Source: Candidatus Thiodiazotropha sp. 'RUGA'
Lineage (GTDB): Bacteria > Pseudomonadota > Gammaproteobacteria > Chromatiales > Chromatiaceae
Length of the DNA stretch: 64,000 nucleotides
NCBI GenBank assembly: GCA_016842065.1
Contig: JAEPDS010000014.1
Location: forward strand, 12,132-76,131
Direction of reading: 5' to 3'
Below the pieces are notes generated by a model. The model was not told the DNA's origin. It saw only the letters and a program-made list of their open reading frames with translations, and searched no databases. Shown piece by piece: positions 10,767-24,958 of the stretch. The position numbers and the translations under genes were made by a program. Numbering within the stretch: position 1 is the stretch's first letter; every line of letters starts with the position of its first letter.

Positions 10767-11576
10767 TCAGGCAACCCGTTTGATGTGCTGAATCAGTCTC
10801 GCTGAGATCTCCTCGATCGACATGGAGGTGGTCTCGAGATAGGGGATGTTGTAGTGCTTGAACAGGCCCTCAGCCAGTTTGACCTCCATTTTACACTGTT
10901 CAAGAGAGGAGTAGCGCCGGTCCGGGCGTCTCTCCTGGCGGATACGCTGCAGTTGATGTGGGTCGATGGTCAGACCGTACAGCTTATCCTTGTACTTGGC
11001 GAGGGTCTTCGGCAGCAGGTCGCTGTGCAGATCGTCATCAGTGAGTGGGTAGTTGGCAGCCAGGACGCTGTGCTGCAGGCCCAAAAAGAGGCAGGTCGGG
11101 GTTTTGCCGCTGCGCGAGACGCCAACCAGAATCAGGTCGGCTGTCTCATAGTTCTTGGTAATCGCACCATCGTCATTGTTGAGAGCGAAATTGACCGCGT
11201 GGATACGCTGGTCATAGGCGCGACCGTTCTTGGTGGTATGGAACTGTCCCAGGGCATGGGAGGAGGGAAGACCCAGCTCCTCTTCCAGGCGGGTGGTGAA
11301 GGTTTCGAAGAAATCCATCACCGGAACATCCAGGGTTTTGAAGTAGTCGCGGATCGAGGGATCCACCAGGGTGGTGAAGACGATCGGTTTCTGTCCCGAC
11401 TCGATGGTCGTGTGGTTGATCCGCTCAGCCACCCGGCGGGCCTTGTCCAGACTGTCTATGAAAGGCCAATGCACGGTCTCATACTCAAAACCGTCGAACT
11501 GACTCAGCAGTGAGCGCCCCATCGCTTCGACAGTGATACCGGTATGGTCGGCCAGGAAATAGACAGTACGTTTCAT
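10767..11576 (-). CDS. ppsR: PEP synthase regulatory protein (kinase/pyrophosphorylase)
   Basis: DHTGIT, NDDG and LVGVSRSGKTPT motifs; adjacent to ppsA. Confidence 0.95.
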   Translation of the reverse strand: MKRTVYFLADHTGITVEAMGRSLLSQFDGFEYETVHWPFIDSLDKARRVAERINHTTIESGQKPIVFTTLVDPSIRDYFKTLDVPVMDFFETFTTRLEEELGLPSSHALGQFHTTKNGRAYDQRIHAVNFALNNDDGAITKNYETADLILVGVSRSGKTPTCLFLGLQHSVLAANYPLTDDDLHSDLLPKTLAKYKDKLYGLTIDPHQLQRIRQERRPDRRYSSLEQCKMEVKLAEGLFKHYNIPYLETTSMSIEEISARLIQHIKRVA

Positions 11577-11646: not shown

Positions 11647-14058
11647 CTAGTCACTCAAGCCGGTCAACAGCCTCCAGGTATCGACAACCGTGTCAGGATT
11701 CAGGGAAATACTGGCAATCTTCTGCTCCACCAGCCATTCCGCAAGGTCGGGATAGTCAGACGGCCCCTGGCCGCAGATACCGACATACTTACCCGCCTTG
11801 TTACAGGCCTGTATTGCCATGCTGAGCATCCGCTTGACCGCCGGGTTGCGCTCATCGAAGCTGCCGGCAACCAGTCCGGAATCCCGATCGAGTCCCAGGG
11901 TCAGCTGGGTCATGTCGTTGGAGCCGATGGAGAAGCCGTCGAAGTACTCCAGGAACTCTTCCGCCAGCACCGCATTGGAAGGCAGTTCGCACATCATGAT
12001 GACACGCAGGTCGTTTTCACCCCGTTTCAGACCATTCTGTTCCAGCAGGCTGATCACGCCAGAGGCTTCATCCAGGGTACGCACAAAGGGGATCATGATC
12101 TCCACATTGCTGAAGCCCATCTCTTCGCGAACCCGTTTCAGGGCGCGACACTCCAGCTCGAAGCAGGGTCTGAAGCTCTCGGAGATATAGCGCGAAGCAC
12201 CACGGAAACCGATCATCGGATTCTCTTCTGAGGGCTCATAGAGCTTGCCACCGATCAGGTTGGCGTACTCATTCGACTTGAAGTCGGACATGCGTACGAT
12301 GACCGGCTTGCCCTCGAATGCGGCTGCCAGGGTGGAGATGCCTTCCACCAGCTTCTCCACATAGAACTCCACCGGATCGTCGTAGCCGTTCATCTGGCTC
12401 TGTGCGGCCGCCTTGATATCCTCAGGCAGTTTGTCGAACTCCATCAGAGCGCGCGGATGGACACCGATGGTGGTGTTGATGATGAACTCCAGCCGGGCCA
12501 GACCGATACCCCCATTGGGAATTCGGCTGAAGGCGAAGGCGCGACTTGGATTGGCCACATTCATCATGATCTTGGCCGGTGCTTCCGGCAGACTGGTGAC
12601 ATCGCCCTGGGTGACTGAGTATTTCAGCAGGCCCTCATAGATGAAGCCGTCATCCCCTTCCGCACAGGAGACCGTAACCTCCTGGCCTTCCTGAAGTTTT
12701 TCCGTCGCATCATGACAGCCGACCACTGCGGGGATGCCCAGCTCGCGGGCGATGATCGCCGCATGGCAGGTGCGACCGCCCCGGTTGGTGACGATCGCCG
12801 ACGCTTTTTTCATTACCGGTTCCCAGTCAGGATCGGTCATATCGGTGATCAGCACATCACCGGCTTCCACTTTGGCCATCTCACTGGCATCCGCAATCAC
12901 CTTGGCGACGCCGCTGCCGATACGCTGACCGATGGCGCGACCCTGAGCCAGCACTTTAGCGTCACTCTGTTCCAACTTGAAACGCTCGACGGAGGCGGTG
13001 TCGACCCGGCTCTCAACAGTTTCCGGGCGTGCCTGCAGGATGTAGAGCTGGCCGTCGGTACCGTCCAGACCCCATTCGATGTCCATCGGACGCTGGTAGT
13101 GCTTCTCGATGGTGATCGCCATCTGGGCCAGACTCTCGACCTGCTCGCTGGTGAGCGAGAAACTGGTTTGATCCTGTGGTTCCACATCGACCGTCTTGAC
13201 CCGCTCCTCACCTTCCTGGCCATAGACCATCTTGATCGCCTTGCTGCCCAGGTTGCGGCGCAGAATAGCGGGTCTGCCGGCTTCCACATTGCCTTTGTGC
13301 ACATAGAATTCATCGGGATTGACGGCACCTTGTACCACCGTTTCACCCAGGCCGTATGAGCTGGTGATGAATACCGCATCCTTGAAACCGGATTCGGTGT
13401 CGAGGGTGAACATGACCCCGGCTGAGCCGACGTCGGAGCGCACCATCCGTTGGATGCCTGCAGAGAGTGCCACATCCTCATGGGCGAATCCCTGGTGAAC
13501 GCGATAGGAGATGGCCCGGTCGTTGTACAGAGAGGCGAATACCTCTTTGATCGCGATCATTACGTCATCCAGACCCTGTACGTTGAGAAAGGTCTCCTGC
13601 TGTCCGGCAAAGGAGGCGTCGGGCAGGTCTTCAGCAGTCGCAGAGGAGCGCACCGCGACAGAGGGAACCTCCTCAGCATCACCCACCAGCTTCTTGTAGG
13701 CCGCGGTGACAGCATTCTCCAGCTCTTCCGGAAACTCCGCTTCGACCACCCATTCACGCACTGTCTTGCCCGCTTCCGCCAGTGCCGTGACATCGCTCAC
13801 ATCGAGCTGCTGCAACAGCGGGTCGATTCGCTCCGCAAGGCGGTTGTGTTGCAGAAACTCACGATAGGCATGGGCTGTGGTGGCAAAGCCACCGGGAACG
13901 GAGACGCCGGCATCGGCAAGACCGCTGATCATCTCACCAAGAGATGCGTTCTTGCCGCCGACCTGATCGACATCATGCATTTTCAGGTTTTCAAACCAGA
14001 TTATTTGTTCATTCACCGCTTGCCCTCGGCTTGTGGATTGATTGGATGGATCAGTCAT
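11647..14058 (-). CDS. ppsA: Phosphoenolpyruvate synthase
   Basis: [36 protein letters not shown] (phospho-His) and [15 protein letters not shown]. Start moved to ATG 14058 because the longer ORF runs through the upstream small gene. Confidence 0.97.
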
Positions 14059-14062
14059 TGTT

Positions 14063-14260
14063 TTAACCTCTGAGGTGGTCTCCTTGACGTTGGCAGCTGT
14101 TTCCGCTGCACAGACAGCTTTTACCACAGCCTGTGCCCTCTTCCTTATGAGGACCTAACTCAGGATGCAGTTTAGAAAAGCGTCGGGTGATGGACTGGAC
14201 GATCAACCAGCCCAACAACAGAATCGGTATCACGGTCATGGCGATGAGATAGTCGAGCAT
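14063..14260 (-). CDS. 65-aa single-TM protein with a C-terminal C-x3-C-x-C-x4-C motif (NqrM/FeoB-associated-like architecture)
   Basis: GGAGG RBS; start 4 nt after the rnfA stop; stop 4 nt before the ppsA start. Sequence [22 protein letters not shown]...[13 protein letters not shown]. Confidence 0.8.
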
Positions 14261-14264
14261 CGAA

Positions 14265-14855
14265 TCAACCTCCAAGTCCGGCAAAGCCCATGAACGAGAG
14301 TGAAAGCAGACCACCCAGCATCAGACTCACGGCGGCACCCTGGGTGATGCTCGGCATGGTCGAAAGCTCAAGCTTCTCGCGCAGACCGGCCATCAGCAGG
14401 ATCGCCAGGATAAAACCGACTCCGGCACCCAGTGCATAGACCAGGGATTGCAGGAAACTGTACTCCTTGAATGTCTGGAACAGGGCCAGACCGAGGATCG
14501 CACAGTTGGTGGTGATCAACGGCAGAAAGATGCCCAATGAGCGAAACAGGGCAGGGCTGAATTTTTTCAGGGTCATCTCCACCAATTGTACGGCACTGGC
14601 GATCACCGCGATATAGGCGATCAGGCGCAGGAATTCGATCTCAAAGGCGACCAGCACCTCATTGATCAGAAACGCACAGACTGAACTGACCAGCATTACG
14701 AACAGGGTTGCCAGGCCCATTGGTACGGCGGTATTGATCTTTCCCGAGACACCGAGGAACGGGCACAGGCCGAGAAACAGGGCAAGTACAAAGTTGTTTG
14801 CCAGTACCGCGTTGAGAAAGATAAAGCTTAGGGTTTCTGTCGCCATCGTGGTCAC
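14265..14855 (-). CDS. rnfA: Rnf electron transport complex subunit A
   Basis: NNFVLALFLGLCPFLGVS and FLPLITTNCAILG. Confidence 0.95.
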   Translation of the reverse strand: MTTMATETLSFIFLNAVLANNFVLALFLGLCPFLGVSGKINTAVPMGLATLFVMLVSSVCAFLINEVLVAFEIEFLRLIAYIAVIASAVQLVEMTLKKFSPALFRSLGIFLPLITTNCAILGLALFQTFKEYSFLQSLVYALGAGVGFILAILLMAGLREKLELSTMPSITQGAAVSLMLGGLLSLSFMGFAGLGG

Positions 14856-14931: not shown

Positions 14932-15576
14932 TCATGATTCTGCCGCCGGATTCAGTTCAGTCTCGGATTTGCGCTGCTTCAGCCACTCGAACAGCAGCAG
15001 CCAGGCACCCAGTACGAGAAAGCCGCCGGCGGGCAGTACCATCACCACCCAGGGTTCGAATCTGGGGCCGAACAGATCAATGCCGAACAGGCTGCCGGCA
15101 CCGAGGATTTCGCGCACCACGCCAAGGCAGAGCAGGGCCAGGGTAAATCCCAGCCCCATGCCGGTGGCGTTGACGATCGACTTCAACGGCGGATTCCTGG
15201 AAGAGTAGGCCTCGGCCCGGCCCAGTATCATGCAGTTGGCTACGATCAGCTGGATGAAGGCACCCAGTGCATTGTAGAGATCCAGGGAGATCGCCTGGAT
15301 GGTGTAGTCGACAATGGTGACGAAGGTGGCGATGATGACGATGTAGGTGGCGATGCGCACCTGCTTGGGAATGCTGTTGCGCAGCAGCGAGATCAAAGTG
15401 CCTGAGGCGAGCAGTACGAAAAGTGTCGCAATACCCATCGCCAGGGCATTGATTGCCGAGTTGGTCACTGCCAGTACCGGGCACATGCCCAGCAGCATGA
15501 CAAACACAGGATTCTCACGCCACAAACCTTCACTGAAGGTATCCCAGGTGATGGTGTTGTCTTGTTTTTTCGCCAT
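14932..15576 (-). CDS. rnfE: Rnf subunit E
   Basis: ENPVFVMLLGMCPVLAVT, IPKQVRI and LIVANCMILGRAEAY. Confidence 0.95.
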   Translation of the reverse strand: MAKKQDNTITWDTFSEGLWRENPVFVMLLGMCPVLAVTNSAINALAMGIATLFVLLASGTLISLLRNSIPKQVRIATYIVIIATFVTIVDYTIQAISLDLYNALGAFIQLIVANCMILGRAEAYSSRNPPLKSIVNATGMGLGFTLALLCLGVVREILGAGSLFGIDLFGPRFEPWVVMVLPAGGFLVLGAWLLLFEWLKQRKSETELNPAAES

Positions 15577-15660: not shown

Positions 15661-16389
15661 TCACTGCGTCCCGCTGTCCGGCGTTTCAGGTTCGCTTGGC
15701 GGCGGTGGCGCATTGCGGATCACATCAATGTGTGGCATCAACTGGGGCAGTAGTTGCTGAGTGGATTGATTCAGCGCCTTGCCCACCGCTTTTGCGGAGA
15801 TGGTCGCGCCGGATATGGCGTCAATCTCCCAAGGGTTCTGTTTGGTGCCCGCTTTGACGGTCACAATCTCATTGGCCAGTGCGTCGCCGCCCGCATTCAG
15901 CTTTGCCTCCAGTGCATCGAAGTTGGCGACAAAGTTGGCATCGGTGATGATTTTGTCACCCAGCCCCGGGGTTTCTGCCAGCTTGAGCACTTTGATCCCA
16001 CGGACGCATTCACAATCGGGATCGTAGCCATACAGTAGGTGAATCATATCCGCATAGCCCTGAGCGCCGGCCTTGGCGGCAACACCATTCAGGTTGCCCT
16101 GTTGATCGTAACCCGCGTAGACCAGTACCCCCTCAGTGGGACCATCCGGGCTGACTGGCGTCACCGCCGATTCAGTGACCAGGAAATCACGTCGGGCAAC
16201 CGCACCCGGGATCACCTGAAACACCGCGGCCTCGATGGCACGCCGTTGGTTTTCTGCGATGATTGGTTTGGTCAGCTGGTAGGTGAGTACCACCAGAAAA
16301 CCCGACAACATGGCAATTCCCATCAGGGTACGAATCATCGGGCCCGTCGGGGTGGACGGTTGGATGGCTTGAGCTTCCGGTGTACTCAT
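15661..16389 (-). CDS. rnfG: Rnf subunit G
   Basis: N-terminal TM, ETPGLGDKI, and the FMN-attachment motif DAISGATIS. Confidence 0.94.
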   Translation of the reverse strand: MSTPEAQAIQPSTPTGPMIRTLMGIAMLSGFLVVLTYQLTKPIIAENQRRAIEAAVFQVIPGAVARRDFLVTESAVTPVSPDGPTEGVLVYAGYDQQGNLNGVAAKAGAQGYADMIHLLYGYDPDCECVRGIKVLKLAETPGLGDKIITDANFVANFDALEAKLNAGGDALANEIVTVKAGTKQNPWEIDAISGATISAKAVGKALNQSTQQLLPQLMPHIDVIRNAPPPPSEPETPDSGTQ

Positions 16390-17432
16390 TTGCCCGCCCT
16401 CTGCTCGCCGAACACCCGGGGTTGGGTGATCTGATCAATCAACGGTGTGGCCGCATTGCCCAGCAGGATGGCATACATCACCCCTTCGGTCAGACCGCCG
16501 AAGAGTCGGATGATCACGGTGATTACACCAATCATCACGGCATAGATCACCACCCCGAGTGGGGTAACCGGTGAACCGACCATGTCACTGGCCATGAACC
16601 AGGCGCCAAGCATCAGGCCGCCGGAGAGTACCACGAACAGTGGGTCCGGATATTTGGCCGGATCGATCATGTAGAAGATACCGGCAGTCACTGCGGCGCT
16701 GAGCAGGACCAGTACCGGAATGCGCCAATCGAGCATCCGTCTTGCCGCCAGATAGAGACCTCCGGCCAGAATCAGCAGCGCGGAGGTTTCGCCGGCGGAA
16801 CCGGCAGTGGTACCGAGCAGCATATCCATGTGGTCGGTCACGACACCTTCAAACTTCTGCAGTGCCAGCGGGGTGGCGCCGGAAAAGGCATCCACGGTGA
16901 CTTCCGAGATCCAGTCGCCTACAGCGGGGGGTTGCAGGAATGGGGGCGTCAGTGTGGTGGGGATGAACTGGCTGAAGCGGCCATCGAAAAATGCCGGTGT
17001 CCAGGTGGTGATGGCAACCGGAAAGGCGGCTTGAACAAAGGCCCGTCCGATCAGTGCAGGATTCATGGCGTTCATGCCCAGTCCGCCGAACATCGCCTTG
17101 CCCAGCGCGACACCGACGAAGGCGGCAACCGCACCCATCCAGAGGGGGAAACCGGGCGGCAGGGTCATCGCCAGCAACAGGCCGGTGATGGTGGCGGACC
17201 AGTCTCCCAGGGAACTGGGCTTACCGCTCAGCGCATTGAACATACGCTCACTCAACAGGCAGGTCAGGGTGACGACCACCAGCAGTGCCAGTGCGCTGAT
17301 ACCGAATTGCCAGACAGTGAATGCACAGATCGGTAGCAGGGCGTAGACCACATTGCGCATGATGACGACCACATCCTCCCCGGCATGGGCATGAGGTGAG
17401 GTACGCAGTTCAATGGTGGGTTTTTTACTCAT
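16386..17432 (-). CDS. rnfD: Rnf subunit D
   Basis: SPHAH, FGGLGMN.MNPAL, the FMN motif DAFSGATPL, and GSAGETS. Confidence 0.95.
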   Translation of the reverse strand: MSKKPTIELRTSPHAHAGEDVVVIMRNVVYALLPICAFTVWQFGISALALLVVVTLTCLLSERMFNALSGKPSSLGDWSATITGLLLAMTLPPGFPLWMGAVAAFVGVALGKAMFGGLGMNAMNPALIGRAFVQAAFPVAITTWTPAFFDGRFSQFIPTTLTPPFLQPPAVGDWISEVTVDAFSGATPLALQKFEGVVTDHMDMLLGTTAGSAGETSALLILAGGLYLAARRMLDWRIPVLVLLSAAVTAGIFYMIDPAKYPDPLFVVLSGGLMLGAWFMASDMVGSPVTPLGVVIYAVMIGVITVIIRLFGGLTEGVMYAILLGNAATPLIDQITQPRVFGEQRAGK

Positions 17433-17468: not shown

Positions 17469-18809
17469 TTAGGCAGCCTGTTCCCGGTTGATCGCTTTGG
17501 CGATCCGAAAATACTGCACCAGGGGAATATTCGAGGGGCAGACATAGGAGCAGCAGCCACACTCGAAACAGTCGGTCAGGTGATACTCTTCGGCCATCTC
17601 CTCATATTTACGCTTCGCTGCCAGTTGTCCAAGCATCGAGGGATTGAGATGCATGGGGCAGGCACTGACACAACGGGCACAGCGGATACAGGGCCAGATT
17701 TTGTGGCTCTCTTCCTCGATGGAGGGTTCATTCAGGACCAGTAGTCCGGAGGTGCCCTTGGTAATCGGGGTATCCAGGGCGGAGACGGCAGGCCCCATCA
17801 TCGGACCACCCAGTATAAACTCAGTACGAGCACCCTCATAACCCACATAATCGAGAATATATCGGATCGGGGTACCCAGTGGCACCAGGTAGTTGGCCGG
17901 CTTGGCGATGCCGGGCCCTGCGACGGTGATCACCCGTTCGATCAACCCCCGTCCTTTGGGCAGCAGATCCCCCAGACCGGCCAGGGTGCCCACATTATTG
18001 ACCACTACGCCCACATCGGCGGGCAGACCGCCTGTGGGTACCTCCCGATCGAGGGCCGATTTGATCAGCATCTTTTCAGAGCCTTGAGGGTACTTGGTCT
18101 CTACTGCTTTGACCTCCACCGGGCTGCCTTTGGATAGATGGCTCTTAAGCAGCTCCACCGCGTCCATTTTATTGTCTTCGATACCGATGATCGCCTTTTC
18201 CGTACCGGTGGCGCGCATCGCGTAACGAATGCCACGCAACAGAGCTTTGGGGTGTTCCAGCATGATCCTGTGGTCACAGGTCAGGTAGGGCTCACATTCG
18301 CAACCGTTGACGATCAGGGTATCGACCTGTTTGTCTGGCGGTATCGAGAGCTTCATATGGGAGGGGAAGGCGGCGCCGCCGAGTCCCACCATGCCGCTGT
18401 CCTGGATTGCCTGGATGATCTCTTGCGGGGAGAGTTCACTCATCTCCCGCGGCTGTTCCCAAAGCACCTCTTGTGTCGAGCCTTCATAGACATCGATGAG
18501 GATCGCATTGGTCTTCGGGCCCTTCGGAGTCGGCATCAGTTCGATGCCGGCGATTCGGCCAGTAGCCGGGGCATGCAGAGGCACTGAAAAGTTTCCGTCC
18601 GCTTTGGCAATCGGTTCACCCCGAACCACCTCCTGGCCTTTGACAACCAGAGGTATCGCCGGTTTGCCGATATGCTGGTCCAGCGGCAACACCAGTTGCG
18701 GGGGGAAGGGAAGACGGCGGATCGGTTTATCCGCCGTATCCTTGTGATAGGGTGGATGGATGCCGTGTGTAAAGCCTTTCTGCCCAAACAGCAGGTTGAA
18801 CAATCCCAT
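17469..18809 (-). CDS. rnfC: Rnf subunit C (short form without C-terminal repeats)
   Basis: GMVGLGGAAFP, NGCECEPYLTCD, YPQGSEK, GGPMMG, CIRCARCVSACP and CFECGCCSYVCP. Confidence 0.96.
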   Translation of the reverse strand: MGLFNLLFGQKGFTHGIHPPYHKDTADKPIRRLPFPPQLVLPLDQHIGKPAIPLVVKGQEVVRGEPIAKADGNFSVPLHAPATGRIAGIELMPTPKGPKTNAILIDVYEGSTQEVLWEQPREMSELSPQEIIQAIQDSGMVGLGGAAFPSHMKLSIPPDKQVDTLIVNGCECEPYLTCDHRIMLEHPKALLRGIRYAMRATGTEKAIIGIEDNKMDAVELLKSHLSKGSPVEVKAVETKYPQGSEKMLIKSALDREVPTGGLPADVGVVVNNVGTLAGLGDLLPKGRGLIERVITVAGPGIAKPANYLVPLGTPIRYILDYVGYEGARTEFILGGPMMGPAVSALDTPITKGTSGLLVLNEPSIEEESHKIWPCIRCARCVSACPMHLNPSMLGQLAAKRKYEEMAEEYHLTDCFECGCCSYVCPSNIPLVQYFRIAKAINREQAA

Positions 18810-19011: not shown

Positions 19012-22000
19012 TTACTGAAATTTCGCTGCACGTTTGACAAACTTTTCCAGGTCTTTTTCAGTAGCGTTCCAAGGTGTTCCCGGATGGATGCAGGCCGCCG
19101 TGCACTTCTCGGCAGCCTTCACAATATCCTTGAACTGACCACCCTTGGGATCGGTGATAATCGCTTTCTTCTCGTCGTTGTAGGCGAAAATTTTCGGATT
19201 GATCTCGATACACTCATCACAGGCTGTACATTCCGGGGTTTCGATCCATACCGGCTCGTAGTCCTCTGCGGCAGCGCCGTTACTTCCCGCCGCAGCGGCA
19301 GAGCCATTGCTGCCATTGGCAGAGATGGAACCTGCCAGGGCGTCCGCGTTACCGCTGGCCGCCATGGAGAGCAGGGTGGAGCTGAGGCGGTTGGCCATAT
19401 CGACCTTGGCCTGATCGACCAGGGCATCCACATCCACTTTGTTCATCTCGCCGGCGACACCTTTCAGTTGACGCCAGAACTGTCGGCGCTCTTCACAGGA
19501 TTTGGCGATCTCCTGCGCACAGATGATACGCATCAGGCGGTTCTTGCTGTCCACACCCCAGATGTAAGGGAATTTGCCTTCCCGGTCATCTTCATCCATC
19601 TCCAGGAACTCATCCATGGGGACCATGTCATCGTTCCAGGTCTCCGGAGGCGCCATGCGGAACTGCTTGCGGAAACGCCCTTCGGTGACGGCAAAATCGG
19701 CGAAGGTCATGGGTACTTCCAGTTTACGCGCTTCACCCTTGTCATCCTGGTAGTCGATGGTATAGGTAGGCCAGTCATCGTCCAGTGAAGGGTTGCCATC
19801 CAGATCGATACAATCCTCGATGGTCTCGCCCGCATCCGGATCGTACTTCATCAGCGGATAGGCTCTCGATTCCACAGCCATTTTTGACTGTCTGAACGCG
19901 ATGTCGTCGCCCACACCATGCTCCGGAGGACAGACCGCATAGATGTTGAACAGTGCCGGATGACGGCTGTTCAGGCCATCGATGTAACCTTCCAGCAGGT
20001 GGGTGGTGTTACTGATGGTGCCCTGCAGGACATAGGTTGTCCGATGGGCGATACCGATCAGGGAGACCTCTTTGCGAATCTCTTCCTTACCTTTCCAGGC
20101 TTTACCGTAAGGACTCATATCCGCAACCTGGCCGATGTAGCCGGAGGTACAGGCCTGGCCACCGGTGTTGGAGTAGACCTGGGTATCGAGTACCAGGACT
20201 TTCACCGGCATGCCGGAGGCGAGGACACGGGAGAGGTTCTGGAAACCGATGTCATACATCGCGCCATCACCACCGACCGATACGACCGGCGGACAGAGCA
20301 GCCACTCCTCTTCGCTGAACTGCTTCCAGTTGAACTGCTGGAAGAAGGCGCCGTGCTCGATCGCATTGTACTTGCCTGCCAGTTCCAGTTCCGCTTTACG
20401 AATGGTGGCGAAGCCGTTCGCCATCTTACGCATGTGACCTTCGAAAAGTCCCATCGCGACCGATGGGCTGTCCTGGAACAGGTGGCTGGCCCAGGGGAAC
20501 GGATAGGGGTTGAAGGGGTAAGTGGATCCCCACACTGAGGTACAGCCGGTGGCGTTGACAATACCCATCTCGGCGCGACCGTTGTTGGTCTCACCCTCGG
20601 TGTAACGCCATTTCAAATCTCTCAGTTCATCCAGCAATCGGGTTGCTGATTGCAGCCACTCACGATCGATGACCGTCTTCTCGTGATCGCTGTCCAGATT
20701 CTCGCTCAGCCCGGAGAGGGTCAGATCACTCTCTTCACTGCCGGACATCGCTTCCGAGATCGCTTTCGAGCTGCTCAGATCCACACCTTCGGCCAGTTTC
20801 AGTCGGATGTGCTGTTCCAGCTGTTCGATCAGTTTGTCAATCTTCTCGATCTGCTGTTTGACCCGGGGCTGCATCAACGCAGTGACGGTAGAGGTGAACA
20901 GATGGATGATGGTCTTCTCACCACAACCCAGGCAGGCGCCGTCACCGCAGGAGAGGGAGTTGTAGTTCTCCTTGTCCATCAGCAGGGTCTGCAGAGCGCC
21001 GATCTTTTCGTCCAGGTCGTCGATGCGGTTGAATGAAGGATCACTGGTTGGCAGGTCGAGCCAGAAGTTCCAGTCATCGCGCATACGCGTAATCGCGGCT
21101 TCGTCCTGATGGGTGGCGAGCAGTGCTTCGTCTTCACAGATGGTGACACACTCCATACAGCCCTTACAGGTGTAAGGGTTGACGGTAATGGAGAAGAGAC
21201 CACCACTGTTCTTGCTCTTCTTCTCCATGTTGTTCCAGTAGGGCTTGGTGATGGAGAAATCGAACTCACCCATCGCCTGCAGGAATAGACCGAACTCCTC
21301 TTCCAGGGTAGCCCGTGCATCCTCTTCAATCTCGGCGGCCGCTATGGTCTCGAGTACCGCCTGATCCAGGACAGTCCGCACATTGGCCGCTTCGCCGGCC
21401 TCTTCGAGCAGTGCACGCAGACGTTTCTCCACGTTGCGGCTCTCTTTACGCAGGTATTGGGTCGGACGGCCAGCGGTTTCGATGCGGTTGATCGCGGTGG
21501 CGAAAACATCGCTGACCTTGTTGACCAGGCCGGGGATCGCGCTGTCGGGACAGATGGTGTAGCAGTCGCCACAGGCGGTACAGTTCTCCGCAACCCATTT
21601 CGGGTAGTCGAAACGGATCTGGGTCATGTCGCGGAAGACGCCGGTAGAGGCTGGAATCAGTGACAGAGCCTGATAGGGGTCGGCCAGATTCTCATTACCC
21701 TTGCCACTGGCGTAGAAGCTGCCGGTCTGTTCCCAGAAACGGTGTACATCGGAGATGCCGCCCTCTGCTTCAGGCAGTTGCTTGAGCATCACCGGCATGC
21801 CGATCTCTTTCTTCACCGGCAGCTGAGCGCTGCTGCCGATGGCTTTGTTGGTGATCTCGTGGATCTCATCGAAGCCGCGGCGTACAACCCGCAGGTTGTC
21901 CTCAACCACCCGGCGACCCTTGCTGCCGAATTTGGCGACAAGTTGACTCTCGATGGCGCTGAACAGTTTCTTCTCGTCCAGTCCCGCCATCTCCATCAGC

Positions 22001-23949
22001 GGAGAACCGGCAAAGAAGGCGCCTTGGAAGGCGTTACCCTGCATACGCAGCTGTAATTCGGCGTCGGAGGCCTCATCTTTGGCGATCTTGAAACCGTCCA
22101 GATAGAAGACATGGATCTCGTTGTCGATGATCTGCTGCTGCATCCAGCGGGGGAATGATTCCCATACCTCATCCGCCGAACCAAGGTCCGATTGGATGAT
22201 CAGGGTACCGCCCTGTTTCAGACCGGCCAGTGGATTGGAGTGACCGAACACGTTCGCGTCCGGGCTCAAGACCACATCCACATAGTGATACTCACAGTTC
22301 AGCGGAATCGGTGTCGGCGCCGCAGAGAGGTAGTAGGTGGTGGGTTGACCCTTCTTCTCCGAACCATATTTCGGATTCGCTTTGATCTCGTATCCGAGCA
22401 GATCATAGAGCGTCATGACCAGGTTCTTACCGGTGGTGATGGCGCCCCAGCCACCGACCGAGTGCATTCTTACGGTAATCGAGCCTTCCGGCATCAGATT
22501 CGGGTTTTCCGAACCGCGCAGCGCCATCTCGCCGATGTTCGGATAGGCTTCGAGCAGTTTCTGGATATGGATCTCCTGCTTGGGTGTGTCCGCATCGCGC
22601 ACGAAATCGATACCCAGGTAGAAGAACTTCCGCTGGCTGCCGTCAGGCAGCATATTCTCAACCGCAGCGATCAGTGCCTCAGGCTGCAGGTCACGGGAAC
22701 CCAGCCCATAGGCGCCGGAGTAGAGATGAGGGGCATCGGCAAAGCTGCTGTAGCAGTCATACTTTGCATAGGGCCGTGCCAGTTTGCCCGCTTTAGCCTG
22801 ACCGTTTTCAATACACTTGGAGACCACCGAGCGGACTTCTCGCATCAGCGGCAGGTCTTCCGCAAGCGGCTGGTCGGTACGCTCCAGTACGCAGACACCC
22901 TTTTTACCTTTCAGGATCTGACCCAACTGGTCACCCGGGAAGGGGCGGAACATGGTGATGTCGACCACACCGATCTTCAGTTTGCGGGTCTTCTCCAGAT
23001 AGTCGGCCAGGCCATGGGCCTGAACAATCATCGAACCCATGCCGACGATCAGGTAGTCGGCTTTCTCAGTGTTATAGGTGCCGATGCGGTTGTAACGACG
23101 CCCGGTAAGTTCATAGAACTCATCCATCGCCTTGTCAGCAATTTCCGGGATGTGCTGGAAGAAATAGGGCCTCTGTGCAGCGGTAGTCTGCATATAGGCA
23201 TCCTGGTTCTGCACCGAGCCTGAGAGCATGGGGTTGTCCACATCCCAGATCGCCGGTACCCGGCGACGGGTCTCACCGAACAGCAGCTTCTGTGCCGGGG
23301 TGGGGCATTCGATCTCATCATCCGGACGACCCAGATACTCAGCGATCAGCTCCCGTTCAGGCACCTGCAGCGGTTCGATCAGATGGGTGGTCAGAAATCC
23401 GTCCTGGGCAACCGCAGCCGGAGTCAGCGACATTTCGGCGATCTTGCGGCCGATCAGGTTCAGATCGGCGGCACCCTGGGCGTTGTTGGCGAAGACCTGG
23501 AAAAAGCCGGTATCGTCAATACAGTGGAAATCGTCATGGCCGCAATGCACGTTGAGTGAGGCCTTGGTGATCGCGCGACAGCCGATGTTCAGCACATAGG
23601 GGAGGCGTTTGCCCACTGCCGCATAGAGGGATTCATGCATGAATGCAATACCCTGGGCAGAGGAGAAGTTGGTGGCACGCAAGCCTGTCATGGACATACC
23701 GGCGGTAACCGCTGCAGCCGCGTGCTCCGACTCCGGTTCGATAAAGATCAGTGACCGATCAGAAACATTGACATGCCCTTTGGCGGTCTCTTCGGCCCAA
23801 TATTCACCCATTTGGGTGGATGGGGTGATGGGATATGCACCAGCGGCGTCAGAGGCTTCCCTCTCACACATAATGACTGCCCCGTTACCGTCCATTGCCA
23901 TACGGATACCAGGGTATTTGAAGCTCTTCTCTTCTTTCTTACCGAACAT
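19012..23949 (-). CDS. por: Giant single-chain pyruvate:ferredoxin (2-oxoacid:acceptor) oxidoreductase, NifJ/Por type, with an extra C-terminal ferredoxin domain
   Basis: AYPITPSTQMGE; GGWGAITTGKN; CTACGDCYTICP and CKGCMECVTIC; GACLGCGEK; GGDGAMYDIG...LDTQVYSNTGGQ (TPP binding); C-terminal CTACDECI...KCTAACIH. Confidence 0.93.
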   Translation of the reverse strand: MFGKKEEKSFKYPGIRMAMDGNGAVIMCEREASDAAGAYPITPSTQMGEYWAEETAKGHVNVSDRSLIFIEPESEHAAAAVTAGMSMTGLRATNFSSAQGIAFMHESLYAAVGKRLPYVLNIGCRAITKASLNVHCGHDDFHCIDDTGFFQVFANNAQGAADLNLIGRKIAEMSLTPAAVAQDGFLTTHLIEPLQVPERELIAEYLGRPDDEIECPTPAQKLLFGETRRRVPAIWDVDNPMLSGSVQNQDAYMQTTAAQRPYFFQHIPEIADKAMDEFYELTGRRYNRIGTYNTEKADYLIVGMGSMIVQAHGLADYLEKTRKLKIGVVDITMFRPFPGDQLGQILKGKKGVCVLERTDQPLAEDLPLMREVRSVVSKCIENGQAKAGKLARPYAKYDCYSSFADAPHLYSGAYGLGSRDLQPEALIAAVENMLPDGSQRKFFYLGIDFVRDADTPKQEIHIQKLLEAYPNIGEMALRGSENPNLMPEGSITVRMHSVGGWGAITTGKNLVMTLYDLLGYEIKANPKYGSEKKGQPTTYYLSAAPTPIPLNCEYHYVDVVLSPDANVFGHSNPLAGLKQGGTLIIQSDLGSADEVWESFPRWMQQQIIDNEIHVFYLDGFKIAKDEASDAELQLRMQGNAFQGAFFAGSPLMEMAGLDEKKLFSAIESQLVAKFGSKGRRVVEDNLRVVRRGFDEIHEITNKAIGSSAQLPVKKEIGMPVMLKQLPEAEGGISDVHRFWEQTGSFYASGKGNENLADPYQALSLIPASTGVFRDMTQIRFDYPKWVAENCTACGDCYTICPDSAIPGLVNKVSDVFATAINRIETAGRPTQYLRKESRNVEKRLRALLEEAGEAANVRTVLDQAVLETIAAAEIEEDARATLEEEFGLFLQAMGEFDFSITKPYWNNMEKKSKNSGGLFSITVNPYTCKGCMECVTICEDEALLATHQDEAAITRMRDDWNFWLDLPTSDPSFNRIDDLDEKIGALQTLLMDKENYNSLSCGDGACLGCGEKTIIHLFTSTVTALMQPRVKQQIEKIDKLIEQLEQHIRLKLAEGVDLSSSKAISEAMSGSEESDLTLSGLSENLDSDHEKTVIDREWLQSATRLLDELRDLKWRYTEGETNNGRAEMGIVNATGCTSVWGSTYPFNPYPFPWASHLFQDSPSVAMGLFEGHMRKMANGFATIRKAELELAGKYNAIEHGAFFQQFNWKQFSEEEWLLCPPVVSVGGDGAMYDIGFQNLSRVLASGMPVKVLVLDTQVYSNTGGQACTSGYIGQVADMSPYGKAWKGKEEIRKEVSLIGIAHRTTYVLQGTISNTTHLLEGYIDGLNSRHPALFNIYAVCPPEHGVGDDIAFRQSKMAVESRAYPLMKYDPDAGETIEDCIDLDGNPSLDDDWPTYTIDYQDDKGEARKLEVPMTFADFAVTEGRFRKQFRMAPPETWNDDMVPMDEFLEMDEDDREGKFPYIWGVDSKNRLMRIICAQEIAKSCEERRQFWRQLKGVAGEMNKVDVDALVDQAKVDMANRLSSTLLSMAASGNADALAGSISANGSNGSAAAAGSNGAAAEDYEPVWIETPECTACDECIEINPKIFAYNDEKKAIITDPKGGQFKDIVKAAEKCTAACIHPGTPWNATEKDLEKFVKRAAKFQ

Positions 23950-24055: not shown

Positions 24056-24934
24056 TCAGAACGGCAGTGCTTCTTTACGTACTATGCGCTTGGCTTGTTG
24101 CCCTTTGATGACTCCCAGGGATTCATCAAGCCATACAATTGCCCCGGTCGGGCAGCGCTCAGTAGCAATAGGGGAGGCTAGACTAATCTTGTTATAGTCG
24201 ATTACAGCCAAATTGTCTTGAATACTAATCAATCCTTCCGGGGAGTCTTTGACACATCTTTCACAGGCGGTGCAGGCGACTTCGCAATCGTTTTCTGCAG
24301 TATCACCATGTTCCAGATTCTTACAGGCCACCCACAAGCGATGGGCAGCGTCCTGAATTGAGAACAGATCCTTGGGACAGATATCGACGCAATCGCCACA
24401 AGCGGTGCATTTTGCGTTGTCCACGATGGGTAATCCGTTGTGGTCCATGGTGATCGCATCGAACTCACACACATCCGCGCAATCGGCCAGACCGATGCAG
24501 CCCCAGGTACAGCTCTTCGGGCCGCCGGAGACGACGGCGGCTGCACGGCAGCTCTCCAAACCTTTATAATGGGCGCGCATACGGGCGACATGATTGCCAC
24601 CGGCGCAGGCCAGACGAGCTACCCGTTTCGCCACATCACCACTCTCCACGCCCAGGTAGTCGGCGATCTCCTCGATCGCATCGGCGTTGCTGACGGTACA
24701 TTGAGCGGGAGTGACCTCGCCGGAGATCAGTGCCTCGGCGAAGGGACGGCATCCGGCACTGCCACAGGCACCACAATTGGTGGCGGGCAACATGCCTTCC
24801 AGGTCATCGATTCGGGGGTCTTCAAATACCCAGAGCTTTTTGTTGGCGAATACCAGCATGGACGAGAGTAGCAGGCCAAGAATGCCCATAAAAAGGATAG
24901 CGGTCGTGACGTTAAGTGCGATCTCAATATCCAT
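24056..24934 (-). CDS. rnfB: Rnf subunit B
   Basis: N-terminal TM, LPATNCGACGSAGC, CTWGCIGLADCADVC, CTACGDCVDICP and CTACERC. ATG 24934 preferred over TTG 24940. Confidence 0.94.
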   Translation of the reverse strand: MDIEIALNVTTAILFMGILGLLLSSMLVFANKKLWVFEDPRIDDLEGMLPATNCGACGSAGCRPFAEALISGEVTPAQCTVSNADAIEEIADYLGVESGDVAKRVARLACAGGNHVARMRAHYKGLESCRAAAVVSGGPKSCTWGCIGLADCADVCEFDAITMDHNGLPIVDNAKCTACGDCVDICPKDLFSIQDAAHRLWVACKNLEHGDTAENDCEVACTACERCVKDSPEGLISIQDNLAVIDYNKISLASPIATERCPTGAIVWLDESLGVIKGQQAKRIVRKEALPF

Positions 24935-24958
24935 TTCCAATACCCGATGTCATGCCTG

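Follow-up and report, generated by a model that had tools for sequence, protein, structure and literature searches.

A single-helix, four-cysteine mini-protein encoded behind rnfA in pyruvate:ferredoxin oxidoreductase-linked Rnf clusters is a candidate counterpart of NqrM

Among the described systems close to the one considered here is that of NqrM, a small, membrane-bound protein which is needed to insert the intramembrane [2Fe-2S] center of NQR and whose gene is cotranscribed with the nqr genes (PMC12174285). RseC, a protein linked to an Rnf-type complex, carries a cytoplasmic four-Cys motif able to form an O2-sensitive iron-sulfur (Fe-S) cluster (PMC11729352). The DNA analyzed in this work, referred to below as the window, is a stretch of 64,000 nucleotides from Candidatus Thiodiazotropha sp. 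'RUGA' (contig JAEPDS010000014.1), in which a small open reading frame (ORF), here called X, is lodged between the rnfA and ppsA genes of an rnf cluster. NQR relies on NqrM for its buried Fe-S center, and to our knowledge no counterpart has been reported for Rnf. X is a true protein-coding gene under purifying selection. In nearly all of the loci examined, members of its family immediately follow rnfA, almost always in clusters of the type rnfB-POR-rnfCDGEA, where POR is pyruvate:ferredoxin oxidoreductase, and the product is very probably an accessory protein dedicated to Rnf that carries a putative Cys4 metal site.

The X frame opens with an ATG at 14260-14258 and closes with a TAA at 14065-14063, on the minus strand. 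Its ribosome binding site (RBS), GGAGG, is found 8 nt upstream of the ATG and within the 3' end of rnfA, the TGA of which (14267-14265) is separated from the X start by a 4-nt spacer (TTCG); a further 4-nt spacer (AACA) separates the X stop from the ATG of ppsA at 14058-14056. The preliminary description of this locus, made from the DNA letters alone, had reported the RBS and both spacings, and these were confirmed, as was its remark that the ORF list conceals X inside an overextended ppsA: the longest-ORF call takes the GTG at 14127 as the start of ppsA, and this extension (14059-14127) runs over the 3' part of X in another frame. Because the Pfam PPDK_N match opens at residue 31 of the ppsA version starting at ATG 14058, this ATG is the sensible start, and it also agrees with the packing of the operon. 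That X is easily missed, as had also been stated, holds in part. The NCBI Prokaryotic Genome Annotation Pipeline (PGAP) does call close homologs, but under a wrong name, 'chemotaxis protein' (e.g., MCG7884870.1 and WP_116446359.1), a label which is evidently mistaken, as neither sequence nor context gives it any support. The homolog from Thiothrix nivea (WP_002709125.1) is annotated as a 'hypothetical protein.'

Among 66 unique orthologous X coding sequences, 39, 30, and 55 of 57 sites were variable at codon positions 1, 2, and 3, respectively, and the median ratio of nonsynonymous to synonymous substitution rates (dN/dS) was approximately 0.14. Close homologs sharing 63 to 97% identity are present in Candidatus Thiodiazotropha and related Sedimenticolaceae. 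Using HMMER with an alignment of these close homologs, 160 proteins were recovered at an E value of ≤1e-3 and 68 at ≤1e-10 from 1.84 billion representatives, all members of the 160-protein set being 48 to 122 amino acids (aa) in length; the family amounts to approximately 160 clusters at 50% identity. A tblastn search of 72,556 plasmids with X gave no match. Assembled contigs from three metatranscriptome runs span ppsA-X-rnfA unbroken, one of them over 12.5 kb, and single contigs extend from ppsA via X into the rnf genes, which is consistent with one transcript, with carry-over of DNA remaining possible. From rnfA to ppsR, the coding strand showed neither a sigma-70-like promoter nor an intrinsic terminator, and X is probably expressed from the rnfA transcript with translational coupling to rnfA. 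One gill metatranscriptome contig (X8) is short of one base at 14192 within X, resulting in a frameshift that the other three runs do not have; an error of assembly or a sequence variant is the probable cause. X is small and belongs to no curated family, as might be expected if it were merely a chance ORF in the rnfA-ppsA spacer, but the low dN/dS, the 160 family representatives, the conserved Cys residues described below, the RBS, and the tight packing between two genes refute this reading for practical purposes.

Residues 4 to 24 of X are hydrophobic, with basic residues (R25, R26, and K29) following the helix, and AlphaFold2, supplied with the family alignment, returned a single helix at residues 2 to 31 with predicted local distance difference test (pLDDT) values of 86 to 95. 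X is a bitopic inner-membrane protein with one N-terminal transmembrane (TM) helix, for which the positive-inside rule predicts an N-out/C-in topology. The tail carries four Cys residues in a 12-residue span (C45-x3-C49-x-C51-x4-C56), and the arrangement of a TM helix plus a C-x3-C-x-C-x4-C tail, as first described, is present in the translated gene. In an alignment of 93 sequences C45 was invariant, while P33, G36, C49, C51, and C56 were conserved in at least 90%. Across a set of 17 sequences reaching down to 30% identity, H32, P33, E34, G36, P37, E40, E41, G42, and G44 were all invariant, giving an invariant block H-P-E-x-G-P-x2-E-E-G-x-G-C-G, with W18 and Q22 of the helix conserved in at least 90%. 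The commonest Cys spacings in the family are 3-1-4 and 3-1-5. Overall, the family signature consists of G-W-x3-Q in the helix, R-x-F-A-x-R-H-P-E-F-G-P-x-R-E-E-G-x-G-C-G in the linker, and then C-x-C-x3-5-C, and X carries it in full.

To examine the genomic setting of the family, 185,579 species, each represented by a single genome, were scanned with the pattern HPE[FL]GPx[RK]EE. The scan yielded 201 confirmed loci, 80 of which were retrieved; together with the loci for ten metagenomic representatives these make up 91 loci selected through X. They originate from Thiodiazotropha and other Sedimenticolaceae, tubeworm and Solemya symbionts, Methylococcales, and relatives of Beggiatoa, as well as from single metagenome-assembled genomes (MAGs) of Binatia, Hyphomicrobiales, and Opitutaceae. 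Among the first 88 loci, rnfA was present upstream of X on the same strand in 85, with a gap of no more than 400 nt in 84 of these and no more than 30 nt in 60, and X overlapped the rnfA stop by 1 to 8 nt in 17. The three loci added later also adjoin rnfA, and all 10 sampled metagenome representatives are located behind rnfA, including the weakest (E value of ~1e-4). The sole true exception is a Hyphomicrobiales MAG (L077:877-9001), in which 8.1 kb of unrelated genes, including those for an HPP membrane protein, an L,D-transpeptidase, a MarR regulator, a fused methylmalonyl-CoA mutase/MeaB, and hemB, separate rnfA from X; this could be a rearrangement or a misassembly. The preliminary description had made its proposal depend on conservation behind rnfA, on conservation of the Cys residues, and on signs of expression. 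The first is found in all but one assessable locus of the 91, the second in the 93-sequence alignment, and transcription of the X region in the metatranscriptome contigs.

A POR gene for a protein of approximately 1,650 aa was identified upstream of rnfC in 58 of the 62 loci with sufficient flank, which bears out the initial view of the window as a POR-linked rnf cluster. Downstream of X stands ppsA (47 loci), a gene for a ferredoxin-NADP reductase (FNR) of the PetH type (13 loci), or another gene (23 loci). As this neighbor varies and rnfA does not, rnfA is the constant partner of X, within the POR-Rnf module. Outside the Sedimenticolaceae, a 286-aa FNR gene of the plant/cyanobacterial type follows X (L042, L046 to L049, L052, L053, L062, L070, L082, L084, L086 to L088, and L090), overlapping the X stop in L088, which makes a POR-Rnf-X-FNR ferredoxin module. 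In two Methylococcales MAGs (L073 and L075, 2988-5605), genes for Cas1 and a WYL-domain protein lie directly upstream of rnfD, and rnfC and POR were not detected; the rnf cluster is apparently truncated there, with X kept.

This constancy bears on whether X might be a general small metal or redox peptide unrelated to Rnf, resembling the FeoB-associated proteins or a redox sensor, and only a passenger of the operon. FeoB-associated Cys-rich proteins are likewise short and consist of a single TM helix and a tail rich in Cys, and the comparison with them that had been suggested at the outset gave subthreshold matches alone: PF12669 did not match X itself, matched four of the 93 relatives below threshold (best E value of 0.036), and matched two divergent mini-ORFs at E values of 0.004 to 0.02 (at best 17.9 bits, under the curated 27-bit cutoff). 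Against such a reading, the place behind rnfA is near-invariant in Gammaproteobacteria, Opitutaceae, Binatia, and others while other neighbors vary, no feoB was noted among the annotated neighbors of X, and the family signatures differ. We consider it highly improbable.

To obtain loci independently of X, 80 metagenome loci (L092 to L171) were chosen by RnfA alone, at 49 to 78% identity to a family-linked RnfA. A mini-ORF was scored if it was 35 to 125 aa long and started between 60 nt before and 250 nt after the rnfA stop, with an N-terminal Kyte-Doolittle mean of at least 1.6 over 19 residues and at least three Cys in the next 50. Where rnfA was the last rnf gene, 21 of 26 clusters passed, plus both of the two with the upstream side cut off (23/28). 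Where rnfB stood behind rnfA, one of 48 clusters passed, by virtue of a truncated RnfB located at the end of a contig. The background of the rule was 26 ORFs in 765 kb of strand sequence, i.e., at most 0.01 per search interval and approximately 0.3 expected over 28 clusters. The hidden Markov model (HMM) of the X family matched only ten of these RnfA-selected loci; several of the remaining mini-ORFs share the helix motif W-x3-Q, and some appear unrelated. From these counts and the few HMM matches it follows that the occurrence of a TM- and Cys-containing mini-protein behind rnfA when rnfB is absent there is wider than the X family. Literature searches turned up no description of this rule, none of them having been aimed at the rule itself. 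An apbE-like gene, as judged by eye from the N-terminal sequence only, lies behind the mini-ORF in L114, L115, L120, and L130, and in L102 (3669-5678) rnfCDGEA is followed by a divergent X-like ORF, an FNR gene, and then rnfB, which is thus located downstream of the mini-ORF and not upstream of a POR gene.

The same counts could be read to mean that X is the leftover 5' end of an ancestral rnfB, comprising its TM helix and first Cys cluster, that was kept behind rnfA as a site-filling helix once a full rnfB lay upstream. X occupies the exact slot of rnfB in rnfCDGEAB operons, the mini-ORF and rnfB are mutually exclusive directly behind rnfA, and both proteins share a TM helix, a basic-x-F juxtamembrane stretch, and a Cys-rich stretch. 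However, the similarity found by hhalign was confined to 7 juxtamembrane columns at 31% probability against an RnfB N-terminal profile of 52 sequences, and fell to 0.3% against the N terminus of the window RnfB. RnfB continues into ferredoxin domains and has the PF04060 FeS domain, which has no match in X; the RHPEFGP-REEG-GCG signature is without a counterpart in RnfB; the window cluster already contains a complete rnfB; and the strong constraint on the Cys residues of X would be unexpected for a mere helix plug. An origin as an rnfB relic is therefore improbable in our judgment. A broader idea is that TM- and Cys-containing mini-proteins behind rnfA are a general component of rnfA-ending Rnf clusters, with the X family as the best-conserved branch, and were the evolutionary source of NqrM. 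We regard this as speculative and rather unlikely. If it were true, insertion of the intramembrane [2Fe-2S] center between the A/E (or D/E) subunits would be the task of a single dedicated factor of ancient origin, common to Rnf and NQR, and the N terminus of RnfB may have assumed that job in rnfCDGEAB and rnfABCDGE operons.

For a comparison with NqrM, 20 authentic NqrM proteins, all positive for PF04400, were aligned. They have a TM helix ending in G-Y-I-F-Q-K-K, then G-S-C-G-G, an 8-residue spacer, and K-x-C-x-C-P-E-P-C. NqrM and X are similar in size (77 and 65 aa), and each has a single TM helix at the N terminus with basic residues behind it, a Gly-aromatic...Gln arrangement at the helix end, and four conserved Cys including G-x-C-G and C-x-C-x3/4-C; in both cases the gene is at the operon tail of a homologous pump, NqrD and NqrE being homologous to RnfE and RnfA. 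The two differ in the spacing of the Cys residues, which is C-x11-C-x-C-x3-C in NqrM and C-x3-C-x-C-x4-C in X, in the 15- to 20-residue RHPEFGP-REEG linker that X has and NqrM has not, and in gene position, as the NqrM gene follows nqrF and apbE whereas X is directly behind rnfA. PF04400 gave no match to X even at an E value of ≤10 and matched one of its 93 relatives below threshold (E value of 0.0024). A local hhalign comparison of the two families aligned the C-x-C...C stretch alone (15 columns, 31% probability), and a global one placed the helix, G-aromatic...Q, G-C-G, and C-x-C...C collinearly at 18% probability. The NqrM HMM scored at most 16.1 bits on the X family, and decoys with shuffled tails gave 0.1 to 2 expected matches at the observed scores. 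The proposal in the preliminary description that X is NqrM-like is thus upheld for architecture and operon logic and is not demonstrable at the level of sequence, by PF04400, hhalign, or HMM scores; it had itself placed the likeness in the architecture and claimed no match of the Cys spacing, and the spacings indeed differ.

Cys31 and Cys118 of RnfA and Cys32 and Cys115 of RnfE occupy conserved LCP and NCA motifs, positions established as ligands of the intramembrane [2Fe-2S] center. By analogy with NqrM, X might deliver or stabilize this Cys-ligated center between RnfA and RnfE, a function that we put forward tentatively and to which we assign somewhat less than an even chance. The helix and the invariant RHPEFGP-x-REEG linker of X would dock on the cytoplasmic face of the RnfA/RnfE pair, where the four Cys residues could bind a single Fe or a small Fe-S cluster close to the membrane. 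X would then pass the center to C31/C118 of RnfA and C32/C115 of RnfE, the four Cys that build the intramembrane [2Fe-2S] center, or would stabilize it there, and so would serve this Rnf as NqrM serves NqrD/NqrE.

Several observations weigh against a delivery role. Sequence similarity between X and NqrM is not significant and not demonstrable, whether by Pfam, by hhalign, or by HMM scores relative to decoys. As far as is known, the structurally solved Rnf complexes come from operons with rnfB behind rnfA, and in the RnfA-selected sample such rnfB-after-rnfA clusters do not have an ORF of this kind; the center is therefore buildable without a dedicated factor. The Cys tail of X is unstructured in the AlphaFold2 model, at low confidence (pLDDT of 43 to 59), which would be as expected of a metal-dependent loop. 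The confinement of X to POR-linked clusters is a hint that its function belongs to this module and not to the RnfA/RnfE center, and the tight coupling to rnfA suits a stoichiometric subunit equally well.

According to this last alternative, X would be a seventh subunit of the POR-linked Rnf, its helix permanently packed on RnfA/RnfE. Its Cys4 site would then have a structural role (Zn/Fe) or would serve RnfB or the giant POR as an additional electron relay or docking point. Start/stop overlaps of -8, -4, or -1 nt between X and rnfA are common, suggesting equimolar synthesis, X is found together with the POR of about 1650 aa in the 58 of 62 loci given above, the 20-residue juxtamembrane linker is so strongly conserved that it resembles a permanent interface, and the mini-ORF occurs where rnfB is missing behind rnfA. 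Extra lineage-specific Rnf subunits do exist, namely RnfH in A. vinelandii, with RnfX and RnfY proposed. On the other hand, a soluble tail of approximately 20 to 40 residues is small for docking a 180-kDa enzyme, and the window RnfB retains its own TM helix and FeS domain, so that no anchor is missing. A PDB sequence search with the X family profile gave chance matches only (E values of ≥0.3). Such a subunit is therefore absent from the deposited structures, among them the Rnf and NQR entries that a search with RnfA had recovered; the solved RnfA chains nearest to that of the window belong to A. woodii (9eri) and C. tetanomorphum (7zc6). We regard a seventh subunit as the main rival to a delivery role and as somewhat less likely than it.

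X is not matched by any Pfam or NCBIfam model, even at an E value of ≤10, and none of these models matched the 93 relatives above threshold; the family is uncurated. Four Cys residues as closely spaced as those of X also occur in SoxR, which is reduced by the Rnf homolog Rsx and whose CX2CXCX5C loop binds a [2Fe-2S] cluster with four Cys in a 12-residue span. A compact Cys4 motif such as that in X can thus hold a [2Fe-2S] cluster; SoxR is a soluble, MerR-type regulator, and no homology is claimed. RseC/RnfF (PF04246) resembles X in being small, membrane-bound, and equipped with a four-Cys motif on the cytoplasmic side, a location that is predicted in the case of X, and no match to PF04246 was found in X or the 93 relatives. 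In contrast to X, RseC has the reverse order, with its Cys domain (CX5CX2CX5C) at the N terminus and two TM helices behind it (PMC11729352). NqrM and RseC are both Cys4 partners, and Cys4 membrane partners therefore recur in the Rnf/NQR superfamily. The idea that X and the downstream FAD/NAD protein together form a split NqrF was rejected, as the latter is an ordinary FNR (E value of 1e-48 to PetH-type structures); it is, moreover, a weak nqrF match and is absent from the lineage of the window. Taken together, X appears from its size, architecture, and operon logic to be an analogue of NqrM and not a demonstrable member of any described family.

The genes of the window cluster run on the minus strand in the order rnfB, POR, rnfC, rnfD, rnfG, rnfE, rnfA, X, ppsA, and ppsR, the POR gene separating rnfB from rnfC (Table 1).

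Table 1. Features of X and of the surrounding rnf-POR cluster, in window coordinates
Feature	Coordinates	Strand	Basis
X, small ORF (65 codons + TAA)	14063..14260	minus	sequence read and translation
RBS of X (GGAGG)	14269..14273	minus	read directly
TM helix of X, codons 4-24, with conserved G17-W18...Q22	14189..14251	minus	AlphaFold2 and conservation
Juxtamembrane linker of X, codons 25-44	14129..14188	minus	conservation, 17 sequences
Cys4 motif of X, codons 45-56, presumed metal/Fe-S ligands	14093..14128	minus	conservation, 93 sequences
rnfB: TM helix, PF04060 FeS domain, ferredoxin domains	24056..24940	minus	
POR, 1645-aa pyruvate:ferredoxin oxidoreductase, C-terminal ferredoxin-like domain	19012..23949	minus	
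rnfC	17469..18809	minus	ORF list and syntenic locus
rnfD	16386..17432	minus	ORF list and syntenic locus
rnfG	15661..16389	minus	ORF list; FMN_bind in syntenic locus
rnfE, 214 aa, Cys32 and Cys115	14932..15576	minus	
rnfA, 196 aa, Cys31 and Cys118	14265..14855	minus	PF02508, 1.9e-55
ppsA, 803 aa from ATG 14058	11647..14058	minus	Pfam PPDK_N
ppsR, PEP synthase regulatory kinase/pyrophosphorylase, final gene of the run	10767..11576	minus	

The true start of rnfB is likely an ATG two codons inside the called ORF. No RseC or ApbE gene was found near the cluster, and no nqr genes were found in it. At 1645 aa, the window POR is longer than the approximately 1170 aa of TIGR02176, for which it scored 400 bits, under the 911-bit cutoff, and it contains additional Fe-S stretches as well as a Fer4_13 domain at the C terminus; L001, L090, and L091 encode relatives of 1640 to 1661 aa. 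The enzyme may be a POR with an integral ferredoxin that is fed by Rnf. A cluster of the same type has been described from the Solemya velum symbiont as rnfBCDGEA ('rnf2'), with the oxidoreductase gene between rnfB2 and rnfC2, and the passages of that paper which deal with rnf are silent on a small ORF (PMC4287430). The locus of this symbiont (L046) carries X behind rnfA. Elsewhere in the window, nested inverted repeats were identified in noncoding sequence between a DUF3943 gene and a TPR gene, with arms of 41 nt at 7666-7706/7912-7952 (90% complementarity) and of 24 nt at 7822-7845/7897-7920 (92% complementarity); the element may be structured or similar to repetitive extragenic palindromes (REP).

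Rnf powers the reduction of ferredoxin for nitrogen fixation, acetogenesis, and the fitness of gut anaerobes, and here probably for pyruvate synthesis in chemosynthetic symbionts. The X family offers a concrete candidate for the means by which a class of Rnf complexes builds its intramembrane Fe-S center, and it comes with a sharp genomic rule, in that the mini-ORF is found exactly where rnfA has no rnfB behind it. The family is present in at least one cultured organism, Thiothrix nivea, in which it can be tested. The propagated 'chemotaxis protein' annotation is corrected, and X provides a marker gene for the POR-Rnf module of sulfur-oxidizing and methanotrophic symbionts. Heterologous expression of this type of Rnf may require that the X gene be included.

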